This document shows, in pieces, positions 4,985 to 51,650 of a stretch of 64,000 nt of DNA. Source of the stretch: Octopus vulgaris (taxonomy: Eukaryota). The position numbers were made by a program, and so were the translations under genes. The notes below the pieces were generated by a model. It saw only the letters and a program-made list of their open reading frames with translations, did no database searches and was not told the DNA's origin. The stretch covers positions 78,430,001 through 78,494,000 of the forward strand of contig OX597818.1 of the NCBI GenBank assembly GCA_951406725.2. The letters are read 5' to 3'. Each line of letters starts with the position of its first letter. Position 1 is the first letter of the stretch.

Positions 4985-5500
4985 GCTGATTTCTGTTTCT
5001 AGTGTATGGAGGATGGTTGGGGGTGGTTTGTGGGTTGTTCGGTTTTTCTTTTTTATTTCTTGTTATTTTCTTTAGAAAGGGATTATCTGTACCCAATTCA
5101 TTTTTGAAAATTGACGCATATCTTTGGAAGAAATCGTTGCTTTTTTCCAGCGTAGGAGAGAATTTCTTTCTTCCTTTTCACAGATTTCTTTCCAATGATT
5201 TATGGTATTTTCGAGGGGTTGTCCCTCGGTTCATTTCTGTATTTCACTATGCATCTCCTCGTCGATGTTTTAATATTTTTCCTCGTTAGTGGAGGCCCTA
5301 AGTTTTAGTAATTCTATCTCTGATTTTAAATTGAATAGAGCTGACCTTTCCCTAATAGTTCTCTGTCCGTCAGGTTCGTTGGGTATTATTTTGATCTGGA
5401 ATTTGCGTGGGAGGATAATTGGTGTTGAGTTCATCCATCCCTCGTATACAACTGCTTTGTTGGAATTTTTTATCATATTCCAGAAGGCGAGTTTTCTATT
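4985..5500 (-). pseudogene. Probable N-terminal fragment of a Penelope-like ORF, inverted relative to the adjacent 3' fragment
   Basis: ORF 5270..5521 (PRKFQIKIIPNE..RERSALFNLKSEIELLKLR) continues with frameshifts into a basic N/P-rich tract and abuts the plus-strand PLE piece at about 5500. PLE assignment is inference from context. Confidence 0.45.
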
Positions 5501-6642
5501 GTGCAAGAAGGATATGCACAATAGTGTCGGAACAAAATACCAGGAACTTTAGACTACAAGAACTCAAAAACACCCTAATTGACAGACACTACCCAGCTCA
5601 ACTCATAGAGGATGGGATCAGACGTGCAACAGAAATCGACATAGAAACTTTGAGAAAAGTTCAACACAACACACCTTCCCCGAAAATACTGCCTTACATA
5701 ACCACATACAACCCCAGAAACAAAGAAGCCTTCACCATCATCACCCAGAATTTACCAATACTTCATAAGGACCCCAAATTAAAGGAAATTCTAAACATAC
5801 ATAAAATCATTAAAAGCTACAAACAACCTAAATCACTTAAAAAGATTCTCACAAAGGCAAAATTGTTTTCTGAAATTACGGATGCAAAAGTAAACAAATG
5901 TGGTAGACCAAACTGCGCAACATGCCCAAACCTTCTAGAAGGATCAGAATTCCTTTTCAAAGAGGGACAAAAATTCAAGATCAGATCTAATTTTACTTGT
6001 GCTTCTAAAAACATAATTTATGTCATAAGGTGCTCGGGCTGCCACCAAAACTACGTGGGGTCCACGGGACTATCACTCAGACATAGATGCACTCTGCATC
6101 GACAACAGATTGCATTCCCAGAATACAGAATGATACCCTTTAGTGAGCATATTGAGAAATGCGCAAAGCACTACTACCACAATTTTTAATCTTTCCATTC
6201 TATCAATGTGCTATTGGAACACCAATACAAATTAGATTAAACAAGGAAACATTCTTCATTGAAAAATATAAGCCCAAACTTAACCATTCTAACATTCTTA
6301 TACAGAGAAACTCACCCCATTAAATAAAGGGAAAAGAAATATAAAGCGATTATCTCCCTTACACCGGAAGAAATCACTTATTACCTCCCCTTACCTGGAA
6401 CTCTTCTTTACACTTCATAACGAAATCATAACACAATGTTTTGAGAAATTTGAAAAGTTAACACGAAACCGGTAATTTCTTCAAAAAGTATGTCACTGTA
6501 TGAAAAAAATTTATAACATTCTTCTGACATAATGACTCAAATATATATTTTTTAACCTTCTAAAACAAGCCTTCTGTAGTTTTTTCACTCTTTACTATTT
6601 TCTATATATCCAACAAAGTGCTTTCACACACCAACTTTCTCA

Positions 6643-6645
<3 letters not shown>
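5500..6645 (+). mobile_element. Penelope-like element 3' part: RT thumb, Cys-rich linker, GIY-YIG endonuclease and pLTR (Neptune-like)
   Basis: ARRICTIVS..RHYP..LPYITTYNPRN; KCGRPNCATC; NFTCASKNIIYVIRCSGCHQNYVGST..RCTLH..SEHIEKC. Frameshift near 6175; homologous to 18793-19620; ends in (TA)n. Confidence 0.9.
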
Positions 6646-6683
<38 letters not shown>

Positions 6684-6689
6684 TCTTTA

Positions 6690-6910
6690 CTCTTTACTCC
6701 TTTACTGTTTTACTTGTTTCAGTCATTTGACCGTGGCCATACTGGAGCACCGCCTTTAGTCGAGCAAATAGACCTCAGTACTTATACTTTGTAAGCCTAG
6801 TACTTATTCTATCGGTCTCTTTTGCCGAACCGCTATGTTACGGGGACGTAAACACACCAGCATCGGTTGTCAAGCGATGTTGGGAGGACAAACACAGACA
6901 CACAAACACA
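6690..6910 (-). mobile_element. Family-D SINE 3' half
   Basis: tacttgtttcagtcatttgac..ggagcaccgcc..tttgccgaaccgcta, as in the other family-D copies. Confidence 0.85.
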
Positions 6911-6919
6911 TACTTTATC

Positions 6920-9900
6920 CTCAAAAATTGGAATTTTGGATTTGACCGAATAAGATGATGTGGATGATCGGAGCAGCGGTGGAGATAAATGTGGGATGAG
7001 TGGATTTGCAAAATAATTCTGTCACTATTCTGCCTCTAGAAAACTTGACTTTTGTGTCCATAAATTCAATGCTAGTTTTTGAAATACTAGACGTAAATTT
7101 TATGTTGGACTTAAAGCCATAGTTTCTAGCATAACAGTCACAGAAATGCAAGAAGTCCATTAAACTATCCTGTGATCATTCCCAGACAAAAAATACGTCA
7201 TCAATGAACCGTAACCAGAGTATTGGTTCATGACCATGAAGGGGTTTGAATGTCTTCAGTAGCTGCATCTTGAATTTCGTCATGAAGATATTAGCGAAAT
7301 TAACTGCCATGGGGTGTCCACGGCGCAACCCTTTGTCTGGTGGTAAAATCTTTGTCTAAACTTCATTGTGTTACTTTCTAACACAAACCTCAATAATCTA
7401 CAGAGAAAATTTGATGGAATACTTTTGTTTGACCGCTTTTCGAAGGCATCCATACATACTTCTACCCCTTCATTGTGGTTAATATTGGGATATAATGAAG
7501 AAATATCAATGGTTTCCAAAAATACAGTTCTTAATACGGCCTCGGGGCTTAAAAAAGTTGCTTTTAGATACAAATTAAAGGTATCTCGAATTTAGGAACT
7601 TGATTGTTTTGCGACGGGGAGTAGAAAGCCATGCAGCCATTCCGAAATTTTTGCCGTGCAACATCCATATCTGCTGCAAATTGGGCGCATTGGAGGAAAT
7701 CTTTCGAACTTTTTGTGCATTTTAGGGAGACCATAAAATACAGGTGTCCTTTCTGACCGTAAAATCCTAGTTTCGGCCTTATTAACGAAATTGTTTTCTC
7801 CCATTTCCAGAATTATTTTGTCAAGTTCCTCTCTGTAATTGAGGTTTGAATCAACAGGTAATTCTTCATATGAAGTTTTGTCATTTAAAACTTCTTCACA
7901 AGCCGAAATATACTCACATTTGTCCATAATTACGATAGCGCCTCCCTTATCCGCCATTTTAATAACATTAGAATCTTTATTAGCTAGACGTCGGAGTGCG
8001 TAACGTTGGGAGTTTGTGAGGTTATTCCAGGACTTCTTTCTACTTGATTAAGGCTTTCTATAATGCCTGTCTGACAAGATTCAAGAAATTCCAGTAGTGC
8101 TTGTGAACGTCTATCCCGAACTTTATCTGGATACCAATTGGGATTGTTTTCAATCCAGTTACGCCAGATTCTATCATCGTTTTTATTTTCAGTAAGCATG
8201 GGGTTTTCTGACTCCTCGTTATCAGTTTTTTTCAAAAAAATATTCTTTCAGCTTGTGAAGTCGGACAAACTGAAATAGCCCTTGAGCTAGTTTAGTCTTG
8301 TCGAAATTCTTAGTGCTTGGACAAAAACTCAGTCCAAGCTCCATGACTGAGACATCGTCGGGCACAAGTTTTAGTTTAGATAAATTTATGACCGACTTAT
8401 TCTCTAGTGTGATGGTTTTTCTCGGGCAAGTGGTTTTCAGAGTGTTACTCTCATTAGATTTCTGACTACGTTTTGGGCTTTGCTCAAAATCTTCACTTAA
8501 AACACGAAACCTACTGGGTGATAAAATTTGTTCTGAATTTTCATGTGAGAAGCTATAATTTTTAGTCGTCTTTCTAGGGGTAATCCATTTCTGGGTGGGC
8601 GATAGAAAGTGAGTGACTTCTGTGGTTTTTGTAGACATTTGGAAAACCTTTACTTTCGGGAAAGGAACAAATTTATTGTTTTTGAGGCAAAATCTTAAAT
8701 GTGCTCGCATTTTTGACTGATCAAATAAAAACTTCTCTGGAGCGTTTCCAATGACTAGTTCAAATGCATACGCCAGGGCAAAAGGCCACAATTATATGTG
8801 CCAACTTGGGGATTAATTATATGAACTTGTTGAATTGTAGGAACAATGTTTGTTTGTGGTGAATACAATGTTGTTATTTGTGCCATTAGTTCCTGCGAAA
8901 CTGGTAAGTTCAAACTGTCATAAATATAAACATCTCCGAAAAAATTAGTTGACAAAACAAAATGATTGTTCCTAGTGTGATGAATGAACAGTTTGCGGTG
9001 TGGATGAGAAATTCTGTGTGAGAAAAGAATGGTTGGTTGTATTGGAATTTCTAGAAAATTTTCCGCTGCGATTTTCAACCCGGCGTCAATGAGTTTATCA
9101 CATAACATTTGTCCTGAAAGTAAAAACGACTTCTCATATTTCAAAGCAAATTTTCTCAACCGAAATGTTCCCTTGTCCACTGGCTCAGGGAAATGGGAAA
9201 TCAGCTTCTTTTCTTTCTTTTTTTTTTTATCTTCGAGGCCGAAATTTCCTTTTTTTTCAAAGTTCGTCAAACAGTTGTACAAAAAGTTCAAACGATTTTT
9301 AGAACATACCTTTTTAAGGACGCTCGAAATCTCCTTAATGTCTGCACCAAGCAGTATTAATTTTGAACGATAGTGATAAATAATAGCTTCCATTATATTT
9401 CTTTATTGCCCACAAGGGGCTAAACATAGAAGGGACAAACAAGGACAGACAAAGGGATTAAGTCGATTACATCTACTCCAGTGTGTAACTGGTACTTATT
9501 TAATCGACCTCGAAAGGATGAAAGGCAAAGTCGACCTCGGCGGAATTTGAACTCAGAACGTAGCGGCAGACGAAATGCCAATTTCTTTACTACCCACAAG
9601 GGGCTAAACACAGAGAGGACAAACAAGGACAGACAAAGGGATTAAGTCGATTACATCTACTCCAGTGTGTAACTGGTACTTATTTAATCGACCTCGAAAG
9701 GATGAAAGGCAAAGTCGACCTCGGCGGAATTTGAACTCAGAACGTAGCGGCAGACGAAATATCGCTAAGTATTTCGCCCGGCGTGCTAACGATTCAGCTT
9801 CCATTATGTTAAATGAATTGCTCTCACCAATTAATTTAAACTTTTGAAGCAATGAATTGTCAAGCTTTGATGCACAGATTGGTATATTTGATGTAAGACC

Positions 9901-10233
9901 ATCCGGTATAACTTTTTCTTGTTTGCATGTTTCCAGAAATGATAGATGGCTCTTGACTTTAGCACGAAAACGATTAAGTTTTTTCACAGATAGAAATGTC
10001 GATTTCTCAATTTCTGATTCATATTTGAATGGTACAAATTCCATTGGCCCAGGATTGGGTTCAACGCTGGGGTCTAGCGAAACTAACAGGGCTAACAAGC
10101 CAACTGTAAGAGGGAAAAAAATGCAAAAGCTATAATTTACATTACGATTTTCCTTAGACACCCGGCTGCTTTGGTAACTTCCAGAATTTCTATATGATCC
10201 AATTCTTATTCTGTGTACCATAAAATCAATCAT
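6920..10233 (-). mobile_element. Penelope-like retroelement (frameshifted, 3'-truncated) encoding 2A-like peptide, Ulp1/C48-like protease and PLE RT
   Basis: RT motifs in order: VINLS..ELGLSFCP, ADKGGAIVIMD, PVFYGLPKMHK, PMRPICS, IDISSLYPNI, FYHQTKGCA, WLRFIDDVFF, IEFMD. Upstream: HLSFLETC..VIPDGL, DPSVEPNPGP (10045-10074), and protease motifs NHFV/YDSL/PQVG/NCG (8657-9117). No GIY-YIG because the copy is truncated at 6920. Confidence 0.88.
9397..9795 (-). mobile_element. Family-A SINE with internal tandem duplication (about 184 bp), inserted in the PLE ORF
   Basis: 12-bp TSD AGCTTCCATTAT at 9385-9396 and 9796-9807. Removing the insert restores the frame ..SFNIMEA|IIYHYRSK.. Confidence 0.92.
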
Positions 10234-10289
10234 CTCAATCTACTTTTAAATTATATATTTTCAAATTAATTTTCGTTAAATTACTCTGA

Positions 10290-11459
10290 CTTTATATATC
10301 ATTTTAAAGCCCGTTTTTCGCTCTATCTAATAGGTCATTTTTTCCGGAACGTTGAATACAACATGGACAAAAAGCAAATTCGCATAATTTTCTTATTCCA
10401 GTTCAAGCTAGGTCGAAAAGCTGCTAAAACAGCTCGCGATATCAACGATGTGTTTGGCCCAGGAACCACTAATGAACGTACAGCACAATGGTGGCTCAAG
10501 AAATTTCGTAGCTGTGACGAGAGTCTTGAAGACGATAAGCGTAGTGGTCGGCCATCGGATGTTAACAACTATCAACTAAGAGCCTTAGTTGAAGCCAATC
10601 CACGCCCAACTGTTCGAGAGCTTGCTTCTGAATTAGACGTAACGTATACGACAATTTCCAACCACTTGAAAGAGACTGGAAAAACAAAAATACTTGAGAA
10701 ATAGGTGCCGGACGAATTGAACGACAACCCAAAAAAAAAACGCCATTTTGAAGTGTCGTCTTCCCTTATTTTACGCAACAAGAACGACCCGTTTCTCGAC
10801 CGGATTGTGACGTGCGATGAAAAGTAGATTCTTTACGACAACCGGCGACGTTCAGCTCAGTGGTTGGACGCCGACGAAGCTCCACGGCACTTCCCGAAGC
10901 CAAAGTTGCATCAGATGAATGTCATGGTGATTGTTTGGTGATCTGTGGCAGGTCTCATCCATAACAGCTTTTTGGATCCAGGCGAAACCATTACGGCGGA
11001 GGAGTACTGTCAGCAAATGAATGAAATGCATAAGAAACTCCAACAACAGCCAGCATTGGTCACTAGAAAAGGACCAATTCTTCTCCACGATAACGCTCGG
11101 TCGCACGTCGCACAACTGACCCTGTAGAAGTTGAACGAATTGGGCTACGAAACTCTACCTCATTCGCCATACTCACCAGACCTCTCATCTACCGACTTCC
11201 ACTTCTTCAAGCATCTCGACGGCTTCTTGCGTGAGAAATGCTTCAAAAACCAAGTCGATGCCAAACACGGGTTCAACGACTTCATCGCCAACAGAATGCA
11301 GGATTTTTACGCTACAGGCACAAATAAACTTGTTTCGCATTGGCAAAAATATGTCAGTTCTGACAGTGTTAATTTCGACTAATAAAATTTTGTTTGAGCC
11401 GAGATATGTGCATCTGAATTGAAAGGTTAAAAACCACCAGAACTTTCTTGACAACTTAA
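10290..11459 (+). mobile_element. Mariner transposon fossil (DD34D, Hsmar1/cecropia-like); transposase pseudogene 10363-11382
   Basis: MDKKQIRIIFLFQFKLGRKAA..NERTAQWW..RSGRPS; IVTCDEK*ILYDN; LLHDNARSH; YSPDLSSTDFHFFK, with several stops. Right end aactttcttgacaacttaa+TA; left TIR not seen. Confidence 0.93.
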
Positions 11460-11461
11460 TA

Positions 11462-13125
11462 GTTTCTTGAAGGTAGGCATTGATCTTGGAATGCTATGAT
11501 AAACTGTTCTGTTTCTGATTTTAAGCCAGAAGACACTAACCATTGATGGGTAAGGGCTTTGTTAACATTGGCATTATAAGCTTTCTTTTGGGTATTTACC
11601 ATTAAGAGGTTTTTCTTGTCATTTATCAGTAAGAATATCTATGGCAGCAATTTTAGCACAGGTTTTCATACGCATAGTTTTTTCTGTGCTTGTTTCAATT
11701 ATGTCTAATTCTGGGATTTGTTATATTTGGAATTCACTTAGATATTCTTTTACCTGCTTTGTTACTGAGTATGATGATTTCTTGTTTTCATGCTTTAAGA
11801 CAAGTTTTAACATCCAGTCATCAGAGTTTATCAGGTAGGTGTTGAGGCCAATTGTGGAAATCTTCATTGTTAATTCCAGTTGTAAAAGTCCACGGCCTCC
11901 CTCTTTTCTTGGCAGATAAAGTCGTTCTGTATCTGCCTTAGGGTGGTGCATTCTATGCATTGTCAACAATTTTCATAATTTTTTGTCAAGATGATATATT
12001 TCAGTAATTGACCAGTTAATAATATTGAAACTGTAAGTCACGACTGGTATGGCTAAAATATTGATCCCTTCGATCCTGTTTCTTGCATTCAGCTCTGTCT
12101 TGAGTATTGCCCTTACCCTGCATTAACATTCTCTTCTGATCCTTTCCTTCATCATTGAATGTTTGATTCTATCACCTTTAAATACCCCTAGGTATTTGTA
12201 GCTCTCCGCTGGTTCTAATTCCTTTATGACATTCTTCTGGTCAAGATTAACGTTGGATGTTTCTGTCATTTTGTATTTGATAAAAGTAGCTTTTGCACAT
12301 TTATCGAGGCCAAATTGCATCCTGATGTCATCACTGAATTGTTTAACAATTGCTAGTAAGCCCTGTAGTTGTTGGTCATTTTTTGCAAAGAGCTTTAATA
12401 TCATCCTTGTGAAAGAGATGATTTATATTTACCAAACATTTTATAGCCATATTGTACATCATCGAGCAATTCCGAGAGAGGTATTAATGCTAGACAAAAG
12501 AGGAGTGGTGACAGAGAGTCCCATTGGAAAATTCCATATGAAATTTCTTACATCTCCAACATTGACAAGATCTATTGTCACTCGTAGAGTTATTGTCTAC
12601 CCAGGCTATCGACAAGTTTTTGTGTCGTTTATGACAATCTTCCAAGATCATCTTATTGATGAGTAGCTGATCTTTACAGCCATAGGATCCATGTTTACAT
12701 CTTTTTTGCTCATTAGGTAATATGCCACTTTTTATTAAAAAAATATAGGCATATTCAGTCAAGAATATGTTGTTAAGCAGGTTATGGGTCTATAATTTTT
12801 TGGTTTATTTGTCTCTTCATTTTTTGGAAGTAGGAATGTAACACAATTAACTAGCCAAGAGGGAATCATACTAGGTTGTTGCAAAACATTGTTGTAGTTT
12901 TGTTAGCAGTTCATGACACTCTGGGAAGGCATTCAGCCAGAAGTTAGGAATGTTATCCTTTCCTAGAAACTTCCATTTGCTTGACTTTCTGAGAGTAGAT
13001 CTTATATCCTCTACCTTGATACTCTCCCACTTTTGCTCTTCTAAGGAGTCTAAGTCGGTAGATATTTTTATTGTGTTCTGCCCAAATTTTATTCCAAAAT
13101 TTTTGCACTTCTTTTTACTTTTTCT
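11462..13125 (-). mobile_element. R4/Dong-clade non-LTR retrotransposon RT relic
   Basis: KDNIPNFWL; [20 protein letters not shown]; LSIAWVD; [16 protein letters not shown]; DDIKLFAK; FGLDKCAK; YKYLG; HHPKADTERLYLPRKEGGRGL. Confidence 0.88.
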
Positions 13126-18427: not shown

Positions 18428-21015
18428 GAAATATGTTACAAAAAGAAATATAAAATACACGTGGAAATGTAAGGGTAAAATATGAAAAATCAACGAAAAT
18501 GCACATTGTAAATAAAAAAAAAGGCTTTTTATGACAGGTAACGACAAATATATACATTTAGATGGACTGAGGTAGTAATAAAAGTCATAAAAGTCATTAT
18601 TATGAGATGATTATAAGATGATGATAAAGTCAGAAAACAAAGCGAAAACACCGGCTAATACACGGTGTCAGGTCTAATAGTTCTTGAGAAAAAAGATTAT
18701 TTGTAAGGGAGGTAAGTAGTTCTGGATTATTTGTAAGGCGGGTATGTAGTTCTGGATTTAGAGATCTGAGTGGTGTAGGAAGTGTATAGGGGTTAGTGGT
18801 GTTCTTTATTGAGTTGTGTGTTCATATTTAATTGGGGGAGATATTTATTGATGAAAAATGCCTCTTTATTCAACCTTTGTTGAATTGTGGTGTTCTGTGA
18901 ACATTGATAGAAGGGGAAGATTTGGAAATTGGGGTTAAGATTTCTGGCACACCTTTCTATGTGTTCACTCACCTTTAACTGTCTGTATTGTGGGTGGCGC
19001 ATTTGCTCTTTGTGAATGGTGGTTCTTTGACGGAGTGAAATTCCTGTTTGTCCAATATAGAGTTTACCACATCTTATGCATGTCATGACATAGATTACAT
19101 TTACTGAGGCGCAGGTGAAATTTGATTTGATCTTAAATATTTCTCCTTGTTTGAAGTGAAATTCTGAACCCTCCAGAAGGTGGGGGCATGTTCCACAGTT
19201 AGTACATCCACATTATTTCACTTTTGGCTCTGTTGTTAGTGGATACAGTCTTGCGCTGGTTAATATTTTTTCGCTGACTTCGATTGCTTTTTGCTTTTTA
19301 TAATTTTGTATGAGCTTAAAATTTCGTTCATTGTTTTGTCTGCTGTGAGGATGGGAAGATTTTGGGTGATGATGTTAAAGGCTTCATTGTTTCTAGGGTT
19401 ATGTGTGGAAATGTACGGGAGTATTTTTAAGTCTTGTTTAGTATTTCGGCTAGCTTTCCTTAACATTTGTATATCTATTTCCTTAGCTCTTTTGATGCCT
19501 TCATTTATTAATGAGATTGGGTAATGTCTTTTAGTTAGTGTAGATCTAAGTTCAAGGAGTCTTTGTTCTCGAGTATATGTATCATAAACTATGGTGCAGA
19601 TTCTTTTCGCTAGGTTAAAGGGTATGTTGATTTTTATGTGTTTGGGGTGGCAGGAGTTAAATAATAGGTATTGTTTTTAGAATCTGTGGGTTTATAAAAG
19701 ATGTCTGTTTCTATGTGGTTGTTAACTATTCTAATTAAGATGTCTAGAAAAGGGAGTTGTTTACTGTTGTGTTCCATAGTGAATTGTATATTGCTGTGTA
19801 TGTTGTTGAGCATTCTTTTGAAATCAAGGAGTTTATCCATGCTGTCTTTCCAAAGTATGAAGCAATCATTCAAATATCTCTTCCAGTTCTCCTTTAAGTA
19901 GCAATTAAAAGAGGCGCCATATTTTTCTAGTGATGATTTGTATAACTTGAGTTCGAGGTAACCCATTACAAGGTTTGCAATCACTGGAGCAGCTCTGGTT
20001 CCCACTGAAATTCCATATTTTTGTCGATAGTAAGTTGTATCGAACATGAAATGATTGTTCAGCAGGATGAATTTCAGTGCTTCAATTATAAAACTGTGGT
20101 TAATACGTCCTGGGATCTCTTCTGGGTATTTTTCTAGCCAGAATGTGATTGCTTCTATACCATAGTCGTGTGGGATATTGGTGTATAGATTCACCACATC
20201 GAAAGATACCAGCTGGGTTCCGTCCTTTACTGTCTTCGGGAGATGGTTCAGCATGTCTAGGTCATCCCTGATAAAGCTTTTCACATATTTTAAAAGAGGT
20301 TTGAGTAATATGTCGAGGAAGTTGCTCAAACGGTGGGTTTCACAAGAAGGGCCAGCTATGATGGGTCTCAGCTTGAGGTCAGTAGGGGGAGGGACATTAA
20401 TGCTTGGGTTGTAGAGACTTTGCAGGCTTCACAAATGTGTGGATTTTTATGTATTTTGGGTAATCCGTAGACTAGGACTGTGTTTAAAATTGGATAAATA
20501 GTCTATTTCATGTGTAGTGAGACCCTTTCCATGAATTTGGAGTAAGGAGGATAAGTTTTTCAGTGTTTTCTGTGGGTTGTAATATGTTAATTTTTCATAG
20601 TAAGTATTATTTTCCAACATGGAAAGTATTAGATTTTTGTAGTACTCTGTATCCATCACAACTACCGCACTTCCTTTGTCGGCTTCTTTAATGATGAGGT
20701 TTATGTCATTTTTTTTAGCTCGACAAGGTCTTTCCATTCATTTAAATTAAGGTTGGATTTAATATGTTGTTTTGGAAGGGTATTGTAAGGAAAACAAGTT
20801 ATGTGATCACAAAAAACATCAAGTGCTTTATTTCTGCCTTTTGCAGGACGGTATTCCCTTTTGTTTTTCACTATTGAATCATCTTCGCTGGTGTAGTTGT
20901 GAAGTGCTTCTGTGAGGCGTAATTTTCGGCAGAAGTCCATAGTATTGTCCTTTATTTCATTTGGGTTCGAACTGCGGGGGGTAGGGGTAAATTTTAAACC
21001 TCTTGCTAGGATTTT
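18424..21015 (-). mobile_element. Penelope-like element (Neptune-like): near-complete RT plus GIY-YIG, frameshifted and 5'-truncated
   Basis: GLKFTPTP; IIKEADKGSAVVVMD; LRPIIAGP; SFDVVNLYTNIP; YRQKYGISVGT; WKRYLNDCF; LPFLD; CGCTNCGTC; VIYVMTCIRCGKLYIGQTG. Bounded by (TA)n and (TG)n. Confidence 0.93.
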
Positions 21016-49254: not shown

Positions 49255-51650
49255 CTAGTAATGCATCCTTGCGTTGCCCGGGTGTTATGACCTACAGCCA
49301 TATTGTATTATTTGTTTCTTTCTTATAGGAAGAATCGGCACATGAGAAGTGTGAAGCAAACAACTCTTGTTTATAAACATGTTTTTCGGTCATTTTGTGA
49401 TGAATAATGCGGAAAGTGTTGACACCAAAATCATGTAGAGTGGCAGCTTAGATTAGAATGAAATCCTAAGATTGCCTCCAAAATGACCTAGACTTACGGA
49501 TGTAAAGAATTGGGTGGCGTATGAGGACGTAGAGGTATCCGTATTGCAGAAAGTAAGATACATTGAAAGAAAGCTGCTTCATTGTGAAAAGCACCATTTC
49601 TATAATGTTTGGACAGACTGTACACTTCAACATACGTTAAGTGAAGCCGACAATGCCCCTGGGTAAACTATGTTTTGCGTAAGTCCAGTGTTGGTTGAAT
49701 AAATATACAAGTCATCTGTACTGCTAACTCGAGAGCATACGACATATAGTTGTCCATGAGATGAGCAGGGTATTTGTAAATTGAGACCCACAATTTTTAA
49801 AATCTGACCCTGGGTTTTCTTGATTGTCATAGCGAAACACAATCGTACTGGGAACTGGAGGCGCTTGAATTGAAATAGCACATTTAAGAGAATAAGGGTC
49901 ATGCGTGGAATGTATGCGATTTCTCTTCAGTGGCAGCCAGCAATAATGGTTGCTTCTAGGATATGACTTATCATTGTAGTTACAGTCAATCTTGTACCAT
50001 TGAATAGTCGTGGTGGTTTTTCGAAATTCCTCAAGAGCATGATAGGTGCACCTTTCTCTAGGAACGACTTATGAGGTGGCAGTTTTGTGGGTTGTCGGGA
50101 GTTGAGAAATTCAACTGGATACTGAAGTGCGGCATGTTCATCGATGGTAGTACCAATGGAGACAAACATTAAAGCATCTCCAGGTAGACTGTGGAGGAGT
50201 TCATGTTTTAATTTATCAAAGTTTTCATTCCAAGGTACTAAAATAGGTCTCTCTGCGAACCATGCTATATTTTTGAAGTTGTCGTGCAATGTGAGAAATG
50301 CCTTTTCTTTAAGCTCGGTCAAAGTAGACACCATGTGCCCACGTTGCAGAACATACTGTTGCAGGGTGTTATTCAACGTAAGGTATCATTTCCAATTTGT
50401 AGAAGTTGATGAGAGAATTCCTCAGCCAGGAGTCGTTGCAGAGATGAGTTCGCATATTCTTGCTTAATGAAAGCTAACGAACAAACTTCCACAGAGATGA
50501 AGACTTCAGACACGCATAAATCTCGTCAGCTCGCGAACCCCATGGTATGACTGGTAATATTTGACGGAAATATCCTGCGAGGACAACAGTTATGCCCCAC
50601 CCCATTATGGCAGTATTGATTCTAATATCCCTTAGTGACCTATCTAGGGCTTCTAGTGCACCACGGTGTGCCATTGGACATTCATCCCAGACAATAAGTG
50701 TAGTTTGGAGTAGCACTTCCGCCGTCGATGATCGTTTTGAAATATTGTACATTTGGGCATCGCTGAAGTGAGTTTTCTTGAGAACGAATAGAGGCAGTTT
50801 TCTTTGCAGCCCTTGTCTGTGGAGATAAATTAGAATGTCCTCGTTTTGGTGACATGGCTGAAAAAAAGCGTACGATTAAGAAACTTATAAGATGGAAGAC
50901 ATAGCAACTTGAAGTTGTGCATTGTATAATTTCATTTTTTTAGTAACGAATGAAGAGATGTGGAAAAATCCATATGTCAATTTGTATACCGTTATTATGA
51001 GAAGAAGCCGTAAATTCTGAATGATTTGGCTGTTCTGTGTTGATAAGCGTAATGTATTCTGTCAACTGATATATAGTGGAGTGGATTACTGGAGTAATGG
51101 AAGTTATTGTTTGTCCAGAAGTGAAGCGTTGGGGAGGTACAATTTGCATGAAAGTGATTTATGTTCTTAAGAAGGATCATAAACTATGTACTGTTTCATC
51201 GAATAAAAAGGGGTTAATATAATTTTGCCCAGAAATCACGTTTTCAGAATTATAATTTCTCCCCTCCCCACCGAAATTTCCTAATTTTTAACTGTTTTTC
51301 GAATGTTGTTTTTTATCCACGTGGAATAATACAGAGATTACGAATGTGGGAAATATAATTTGCTTTTGAAAGCTTAATTTTTCTGAAAGAAATACTGAAT
51401 GCTACTTCCACCACGTCTGTCACCCAACAGCTATCTGATTGCGAAATGTTTTCCCCCACCATAGTTCCGGACACCATTAATGAACGCATTTGCATACAGC
51501 CAACCAGATATCACTTTGACCTTGTCAAGTTAGCAAACACATTCTACCAAGTAACCTCAAGACTAAGGACGGTGTCGACCGATCGCCAAGTTATGCCTGA
51601 TTTTAGACGACAAGTAATTACATAGATTTGTATCTATACTTATTATCGGA
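49255..51650 (-). mobile_element. Helitron, internally deleted, with PIF1-family helicase pseudogene (about 49627-50760)
   Basis: LIVWDECPMAHR..LDRSLRDIR; LAGYFRQILPVIP; YPVEFLNS; GAPIMLLRN..NGTRL; FKRLQFPVRLCFAMTIKKTQGQ..HGQLYVVCSRV. 3' end CTAG|T at 49255 after a GC-rich remnant hairpin; candidate 5' A|TC at 51650 is less certain. Confidence 0.88.

Follow-up and report, generated by a model that had tools for sequence, protein, structure and literature searches.

A Ulp1-like cysteine protease domain inside the reading frame of a decayed Penelope-like element in Octopus vulgaris and of its long-ORF relatives

Why would a Penelope-like element (PLE), a member of the sister group of telomerase reverse transcriptase (RT), carry a protease inside its open reading frame (ORF)? 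To our knowledge, PLEs have been described as encoding an RT and a GIY-YIG endonuclease only. The question is raised by a 64000-nucleotide stretch of Octopus vulgaris contig OX597818.1 (hereafter the window, whose numbering is used for all window coordinates), which carries on its minus strand, from 10265 to 6914, a decayed and broken single-ORF PLE copy. A preliminary description had placed a C48 (Ulp1/SENP-type) cysteine protease within this ORF, and the motifs it quoted are present on the minus strand as given: ORF 8755–9402 contains SGQMLCDKLID..HHTRNNHFVLS..VYIYDSL..NPQVGTYNCG, and ORF 8222–8791 contains FALAYA..FDQSKMRAHLRFCL..PFP and runs stop-free into the pre-RT motif VINLS..GLSFCP. 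The protease domain occupies 8655–9135 (minus strand) with its catalytic codons intact (His 8962–8964, Asp 8917–8919, Gln 8806–8808 and Cys 8788–8790), and a frameshift near 8780–8785 lies just past the cysteine. This frame break after NCG is peculiar to the window copy, as L002, L006, L007, L014, L019, L023 and others read through in one frame (L-numbers designate genomic loci of the element family, and P-numbers homologous proteins or ORFs). The protease-bearing layout is real, lineage-wide and apparently undescribed in PLEs, and adds to the known instances of a recurrent transposon passenger.

The identity of the domain was examined using profiles, predicted structures and alignments. A profile built from 14 genomic copies had 315 matching proteins (E≤0.001), the best 150 of them being considered; L006, as query in a word-seeded search against longer proteins, matched P0001 only. 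Peptidase_C48 was matched at E≤0.01 by 40 of 99 aligned homologues; P0054, P0015, P0061 and P0316 passed the Pfam cut-off, whereas the window pieces and P0002 failed it, and one of eight in-frame genomic copies gave a match (E=0.0019), under the cut-off. In the ESM Atlas, C48-bearing clusters were returned first (0.96), with C48 on 17–39% of the cluster members. A search of PDB sequences with the 14-copy alignment only gave no match; with the profile of the 99 homologues, the top 19 of 26 matches were CE-clan proteins, the four catalytic residues lining up with those of Ulp1/SENP. A first structure model, made from the 14 near-identical copies, reached a pLDDT (predicted local distance difference test score) of 35 and was discarded. 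The AlphaFold model of P0002, which shares ~74% identity with P0001, a row of the family, had a pLDDT of 89.7, and Foldseek matched it to SENP5, SENP1 and Ulp1. VIA-align placed SENP3, SENP5, SENP8, NopD and SENP1 at Z 13.0–13.8, and all 29 rows at Z≥9 were CE-clan or related proteases, the next row falling to Z 5.5. Over ~140–146 residues the cellular SENP/Ulp1/SENP8 and viral CE-clan proteases share this fold (Z 10–14; root-mean-square deviation 2.5–3.6 Å) and the H-D-Q-C order; the PLE protease differs from them in its low identity (13–21%), its compact size (~165 residues) and the changed clamp tryptophans of a derived subgroup. The four catalytic residues were intact in 45 of 45 RT-linked domains spanning all four sites, among the matches listed. 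Thus the C48/CE-clan assignment of the preliminary description is borne out by the homologue profiles, the PDB sequence matches and the fold of the model.

Within the genome, the protease query gave 120 match rows, some representing one place in several frames. At the 29 best other loci, pre-RT or RT sequence lay downstream in 21, other element parts were present in six, and the protease stood alone, by this test, in two; with 27 of 29 loci showing protease and element parts together, the protease is a family trait, not one nested insertion. Its proposed placement within the PLE ORF, after the HLSFLETC domain and before the pre-RT motif, also holds, the same order being found in the genomic copies and in long ORFs. 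Continuity from the RT through the protease was seen in 17 of 20 longer loci, the remaining three being 5′-truncated, and the N-terminal domain was joined to the RT without the protease in none of the 20, a set chosen with a protease-containing query. Over the PLE span the window copy is 75–93% identical to the other genomic copies. A GIY-YIG domain with CCHH in the same ORF was supplied by L031, by other copies and by the long ORFs, and is absent from the window copy. No intact ORF was present among the 50 loci examined, and therefore the family is dead in this genome, as far as sampled. Single-copy variants are near neutral, with ratios of nonsynonymous to synonymous changes (N/S) of 0.71–1.07; shared variants gave 0.24–0.66 in the domains compared with 0.81 in the linker, values set side by side without a significance test. 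The codons of the four catalytic sites were kept in 27/34, 26/33, 31/37 and 33/34 copies. Three loci, L040, L042 and L043 (contigs C16 and C25), are 5′-truncated at the same place (query position 370), with flanks 90–93% alike, and thus represent segmental or nested duplications rather than independent insertions.

The same layout reaches well beyond this genome. ORFs of 1.2–1.55 thousand residues from other sources show the full order of leader, helical domain, protease, linker, RT and GIY-YIG, which establishes the continuity from protease to endonuclease, and three of them (P0007, P0026 and P0137) exceed both the RVT_1 and the GIY-YIG cut-offs. Identity among 19 long ORFs is 30–75% (median 36%), and mean conservation is 0.58 for the protease, 0.61 for the RT and 0.31 for the linker. 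When the RT region only was used as query, and the best 120 of 847 matches were taken, the protease was found in 37 of 111 new proteins among the matches listed. In an unrooted FastTree RT tree of 125 rows, a branch with support 99 set apart a group that included every one of the 49 rows bearing the protease, as well as two fragments from this genome, and the corresponding split in an unrooted IQ-TREE tree of 50 chosen rows was supported at 100/99; neither protease nor leader was detected in the 45 rows on the other side. Also on the protease side of the tree are 26 short and three long ORFs without a protease domain. For 38 proteins, the protease tree and the RT tree were congruent (r=0.85, with 0 of 2000 permutations as high), and seven of seven strong protease splits recur in the RT tree.

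How the domain came to lie there can be read in part from the sister elements. A profile of the N-terminal helical domain (50 training rows, including P0125, mislabelled as a PLE) matched 15 of 24 long protease-less sister PLEs and ended ≤40 residues from the pre-RT motif in 12 of the 15. Because the N-terminal domain of the sisters often abuts the pre-RT motif, protease and linker look as if inserted at this joint. Gain rather than loss is suggested by the lack of the domain in described PLEs, the trees being unrooted, and the likely origin is a single ancient event in which a Ulp1 module of transposon type was captured. The nearest non-PLE relatives found are C48+PHD proteins, and in P0319 the C48 domain follows an integrase-type SH3/GPY region. 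A C48+PHD arrangement behind such a region is the layout reported for Ginger1-9_HM, which was aligned with Mutator domains (PMC2836005; statements on this and the other cited sources refer to the parts of them that were available).

We favour, at a probability of about 0.55, the reading that the window holds a dead copy of an old PLE lineage whose conserved CE-clan (C48/Ulp1-like) domain was likely captured once and likely acts in cis as a deconjugase of ubiquitin-like modifiers. Its source would have been the Ulp1(+PHD) modules carried by DNA transposons such as Ginger1 and Mutator, and its point of entry the junction of helical domain and pre-RT motif. Tethered to the RT–endonuclease on the element's own RNA, the protease would act in cis and remove SUMO, ubiquitin or NEDD8 from the element protein or from repair or chromatin proteins at the insertion site, and such removal might protect the complex or ease integration. 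Mobility would otherwise be that of a canonical endonuclease-bearing (EN+) PLE, with a pseudo-long terminal repeat (pseudo-LTR), a minimal hammerhead and GIY-YIG-primed reverse transcription. Bao et al. offered a similar role, as a suggestion, for transposon Ulp1 and OTU domains (PMC2836005).

Several observations weigh against this reading. The window's own fragments gave no Pfam match to C48 or RVT, and therefore the C48 assignment rests on the family. The RT trees are unrooted and contain no named Neptune reference; the lineage is probably Neptune-like, judged by eye from its likeness to Neptune rows. The three long domain-less ORFs within the clade (P0169, P0172 and P0180) begin in linker-like sequence, and only P0169 clearly aligns to a protease-bearing relative. 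In the protease tree, P0137 falls among domains from outside the PLEs and the PLE side has a support of only 84; the tree therefore does not fix the donor. The fold fails to separate the modifiers, as SENP3, SENP5, SENP8 (NEDD8), NopD, SENP1, XopD and OtDUB tie at Z 12.5–13.8; the cleaved modifier may thus be SUMO, ubiquitin or NEDD8, and an anti-silencing role is putative. In SENP/Ulp1, two tryptophans clamp or tunnel the di-glycine tail of the modifier. At the positions aligned with them, the basal group has tryptophan in 5/6 and 7/7, whereas in the subgroup of the window copy tryptophan occurs in 0/34 and Phe/Tyr in 35/36, the pair reading Glu/Gln then Phe/Tyr. Across the lineage the series runs from W/W in the basal group through mostly non-W/W to non-W/F in the group of the window copy, and because both clamp tryptophans have changed, the specificity of the octopus-like subgroup may have drifted.

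The altered clamp also bears on the most plausible of the alternatives, itself unlikely, that the protease acts chiefly on the polyprotein of the element itself, with cleavage most plausibly following a Gly-Gly ahead of GIY-YIG. CE-clan proteases of adenovirus, poxvirus and African swine fever virus process viral polyproteins, and the adenovirus enzyme follows the rule (M/I/L)xGG. A Gly-Gly 5–12 residues ahead of the GIY motif is found in 42 of 62 protease-clade proteins and in 0 of 38 sisters, often as an adenovirus-like I-x-G-G, and the viral CE-clan proteases have a like fold (Z 10–11). However, the Gly-Gly is missing from 20 of the 62, among them P0017, P0157 and P0174, which retain all four catalytic residues, and in the groups with a linker zinc finger it directly precedes a conserved cysteine, so that it likely lies within a folded unit. 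There is no conserved Gly-Gly between protease and RT, sister PLEs function without processing, and the Gly-Gly and the protease are not independent evidence because both arose on one branch.

Rather unlikely, in our judgement, is an action in trans, in which the protease would strip SUMO from piRNA (Piwi-interacting RNA)/SetDB1 silencing complexes at the element's loci. SUMO and Su(var)2-10 are necessary for piRNA-directed silencing in Drosophila (10.1101/533091), and SENP3 and SENP5 are among the top structural matches. The domain is nevertheless fused to the RT–endonuclease and lacks the PHD finger seen in its relatives, leaving it no chromatin-reading partner; SUMO is not favoured over NEDD8 or ubiquitin, and the link to transcription is conjecture. 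We regard as quite improbable a virus-style polyprotein, in which a 2A-like leader would be released in translation and the protease would both cut after Gly-Gly and strip SUMO from host silencing factors. A substrate of another kind, either a host protein that is not ubiquitin-like or YopJ-like acyl transfer, is more doubtful still: the di-glycine clamp is altered and weak Acetyltransf_14 matches occur in seven of the 99 homologues, but, in line with C48, neither the Asp nor the oxyanion Gln varies, and YopJ-type folds rank lower (Z 9–10) than the SENPs. A one-off nested fragment or inert passenger, in keeping with the broken state of the window copy and all 50 loci and with their near-neutral private variants, is ruled out in practice by the constant location of the domain across dozens of copies as well as long ORFs of 36% median identity, by lineage-wide conservation of the catalytic residues, by the RT split and by the agreement of protease and RT trees.

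Two parts of the element had been overlooked in the preliminary description, the 2A-like leader and a hammerhead-bearing pseudo-LTR. The leader consists in the clade of M-DL..YR.RIG, a hydrophobic stretch and an ExNPGP that is 2A-like but not canonical, and is confined to the protease clade: [NH]PGP occurs in 15 of 19 leaders scored and in 0 of 45 protease-less sisters. The canonical core D[VI]ExNPGP was found in none of the 19 leaders, and one subgroup has a D.RS.KNRQR motif instead. In APE-type non-LTR elements (10.64898/2026.06.17.732966; PMC12338488), 2A-like StopGo leaders likewise have a hydrophobic stretch followed by ExNPGP near the ORF start; the PLE leader differs in its non-canonical core, and translational skipping in PLEs is putative. 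In the available part of that preprint (10.64898/2026.06.17.732966) the word 'Penelope' is absent.

Pseudo-LTRs were recognized in L031, where a repeat of the 3′ end stands directly ahead of the ATG, and in L037, which has a 437-nucleotide inverted copy at 99.3% identity; L033, L039 and L046 are similar. Microsatellites flank the 3′ ends of other copies, as judged by eye. Within the pseudo-LTR lies a candidate variant minimal hammerhead (minus strand; L031 5920–6150, L037 1993 and others) with the core TTGACAA or TCGACAA, an extra base before helix II and a palindromic helix III, features resembling those in PMC4209133. A descriptor written after the motif had been seen gave 12 matches in nine of 20 loci compared with one in 20 shuffle rounds. 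Rfam detected no hammerhead in eight loci and returned microsatellite-driven miRNA matches only, below threshold; a scan for the canonical CTGANGA failed to pick up the variant of this family.

The linker between protease and RT has W419 and N440 conserved among the 19 long ORFs despite its low mean conservation. At ~8490–8590 in the window (minus strand), W.[TP]P.[KR] and N[RK]F..L are kept lineage-wide in otherwise free sequence. A second linker, before the endonuclease, bears a CxxC zinc finger in this family, in 31 of 62 clade members and in 37 of 38 sisters. Its CxxC spacing here exceeds the CX2-5CxxC of Neptune; Nematis also has the motif. This zinc finger and its partner cysteine were jointly lost in most of the P0007-type subgroup and are kept in this family and in P0176.

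Among known systems, the closest in general design are the Neptune and Nematis C-terminal EN+ PLEs (PMC8557442). They likewise have a single ORF with RT followed by GIY-YIG with CCHH, a CxxC linker, pseudo-LTRs, a minimal hammerhead and microsatellite-flanked ends, and the element has the pre-RT and DKG motifs of a PLE-type RT. In contrast, the protease lineage adds ~300–500 N-terminal residues (2A-like leader, C48 protease and low-complexity linker), and one of its subgroups has mostly lost the linker zinc finger. A Ulp1-like cysteine protease N-terminal to the RT in one ORF is also found in NeSL and Utopia-1_TSP (PMC4640811); these are non-LTR elements with an R2-group RT, a restriction-like endonuclease and site-specific targets in nematodes, and are likened here by layout. 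They show that DNA transposons, named by the preliminary description as the carriers of Ulp1-like domains, are not the only ones. Transposon-borne C48 occurs in Ginger1 and Mutator as Ulp1(+PHD) (PMC2836005) and in CryptonF/S (PMC3212892), all of them DNA transposons with the C48 C-terminal or in a separate ORF, whereas the PLE version has no PHD; Polintons also carry Ulp1-like domains (PMC10175614). A cysteine-protease-like passenger has been noted in Dualen and in the PLE Chlamys-1_cBra (PMC8557442), in the latter as a weak Josephin-like motif in the ORF, and differs in protease family, C-terminal position, weak homology, N-terminal-EN clade and green algal host.

That Josephin-like motif of one Chlamys family is the only protease named in the consulted part of the main PLE survey (PMC8557442), whose supplement contains no DCGLF, DCGVF, Ulp or C48 text. 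In the full-text literature searched, which excluded Repbase, Dfam, subscription journals and bioRxiv supplements and was available in part, neither a C48 domain nor a 2A-like leader was described in a PLE, and the earlier statement that this architecture had no known description stands within that scope; PMC6431247, PMC13269885 and 10.64898/2026.07.22.740005 were also drawn on. We put at about one in four the likelihood that a C48 domain in a PLE is already recorded in Repbase.

The lineage is thus a deep and diverse branch of PLEs that an extra enzyme sets apart, and public data contain dozens of its long natural ORFs. Ulp1-like domains turn up repeatedly among transposons (Ginger1, Mutator, Crypton, NeSL and Utopia), and their role in the available text of the papers cited above is a proposal; a single-ORF retroelement with close protease-less sisters would provide a clean comparison for the function of transposon-borne ubiquitin-like proteases. 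At least one 'host Ulp protease' entry is an element fragment: P0002 is UniRef A0A0L8FR10, from Octopus bimaculoides, and carries the automatic name 'Ubiquitin-like protease family profile domain-containing protein'; the finding bears on SENP gene counts in invertebrates. If the polyprotein and counter-defence reading were true, the element would be the first among telomerase-related retroelements to encode an enzyme of its own for processing and counter-defence. In P0074 (neighbours P0047, P0053 and P0089), the protease is nested within the PLE protease group. We take the sequence after it to resemble, by eye, the start of an APE endonuclease, with no Pfam match, and the protease module may here have been passed on to a long interspersed element (LINE).

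The window copy keeps its 5′ ORF start and has lost most of the thumb, the GIY-YIG domain and the 3′ untranslated region. On the minus strand, ORF start and leader occupy 10045–10233, with the ATG at 10231–10233, a MIDF..HRIRIG.Y motif, a hydrophobic stretch and the 2A-like DPSVEPNPGP (NPGP at 10045–10056); the start aligns with residue 1 of P0007 and P0010. The first part of the N-terminal helical domain (9796–10044, with HLSFLETC..VIPDGL at ~9895–9948) is separated from the second (9136–9396) by a tandem insertion resembling a short interspersed element (SINE), which cuts the ORF in two. The SINE had been placed at 9397–9807; it is present, and the insertion proper spans 9397–9795, as 9796–9807 is a 12-bp target duplication paired with 9385–9396. 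Its two 180-nucleotide units are 97% alike, and it is missing at the corresponding site in L031, L033, L036–L039 and L048. After the protease come the low-complexity linker (8400–8654, with the short conserved motifs W.TP.K and [NS]RF..L), the pre-RT region (8050–8399) and the RT with the start of the thumb (6914–8047, with ADKGG, YGLPKMHK, RPICS and RFIDD), all on the minus strand. The RT pieces are 42–65% identical to segments of P0265 and P0010. The list of frameshifts needed partial revision: the one near 8230 stood, those near 8785 and 8030 are now placed at ~8780 and 8045–8075, the break at 7580 is an in-frame stop at 7592–7594, and frame changes near 7320 and 7000 were added; a further stop lies at 7176–7178. 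Alignment to other copies ends at 6902–6914, so the endonuclease of the window copy is lost, and a SINE-like repeat with (TA)n occupies the lost 3′ end (6560–6913, the lower bound being judged by eye).

A plus-strand GIY-YIG ORF at 5419–6186 was considered as the missing endonuclease and rejected, as it has no DNA match to 20 family loci and is 23% identical to P0265 compared with 35% to the sister-type P0231. The region 5270–6186 is a different, sister-type PLE, in which thumb and GIY-YIG (plus strand, 5419–6186) lie beside a probable N-terminal piece in inverted orientation (minus strand, 5270–5548). A third PLE remnant, with pre-RT, RT and GIY-YIG, lies at 18960–21015 (minus strand) and gave no protease match with the queries used. 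At 10270–11450 (plus strand), a Mariner/Mos1-type transposase remnant (HTH_48) adjoins the PLE start at the place expected for a pseudo-LTR, and next to it, at ~11456–12800 (minus strand), is an RTE-like LINE remnant recognized by eye. Further away, at 49930–50385 (minus strand), lies a Pif1 helicase 2B fragment, probably derived from a Helitron.

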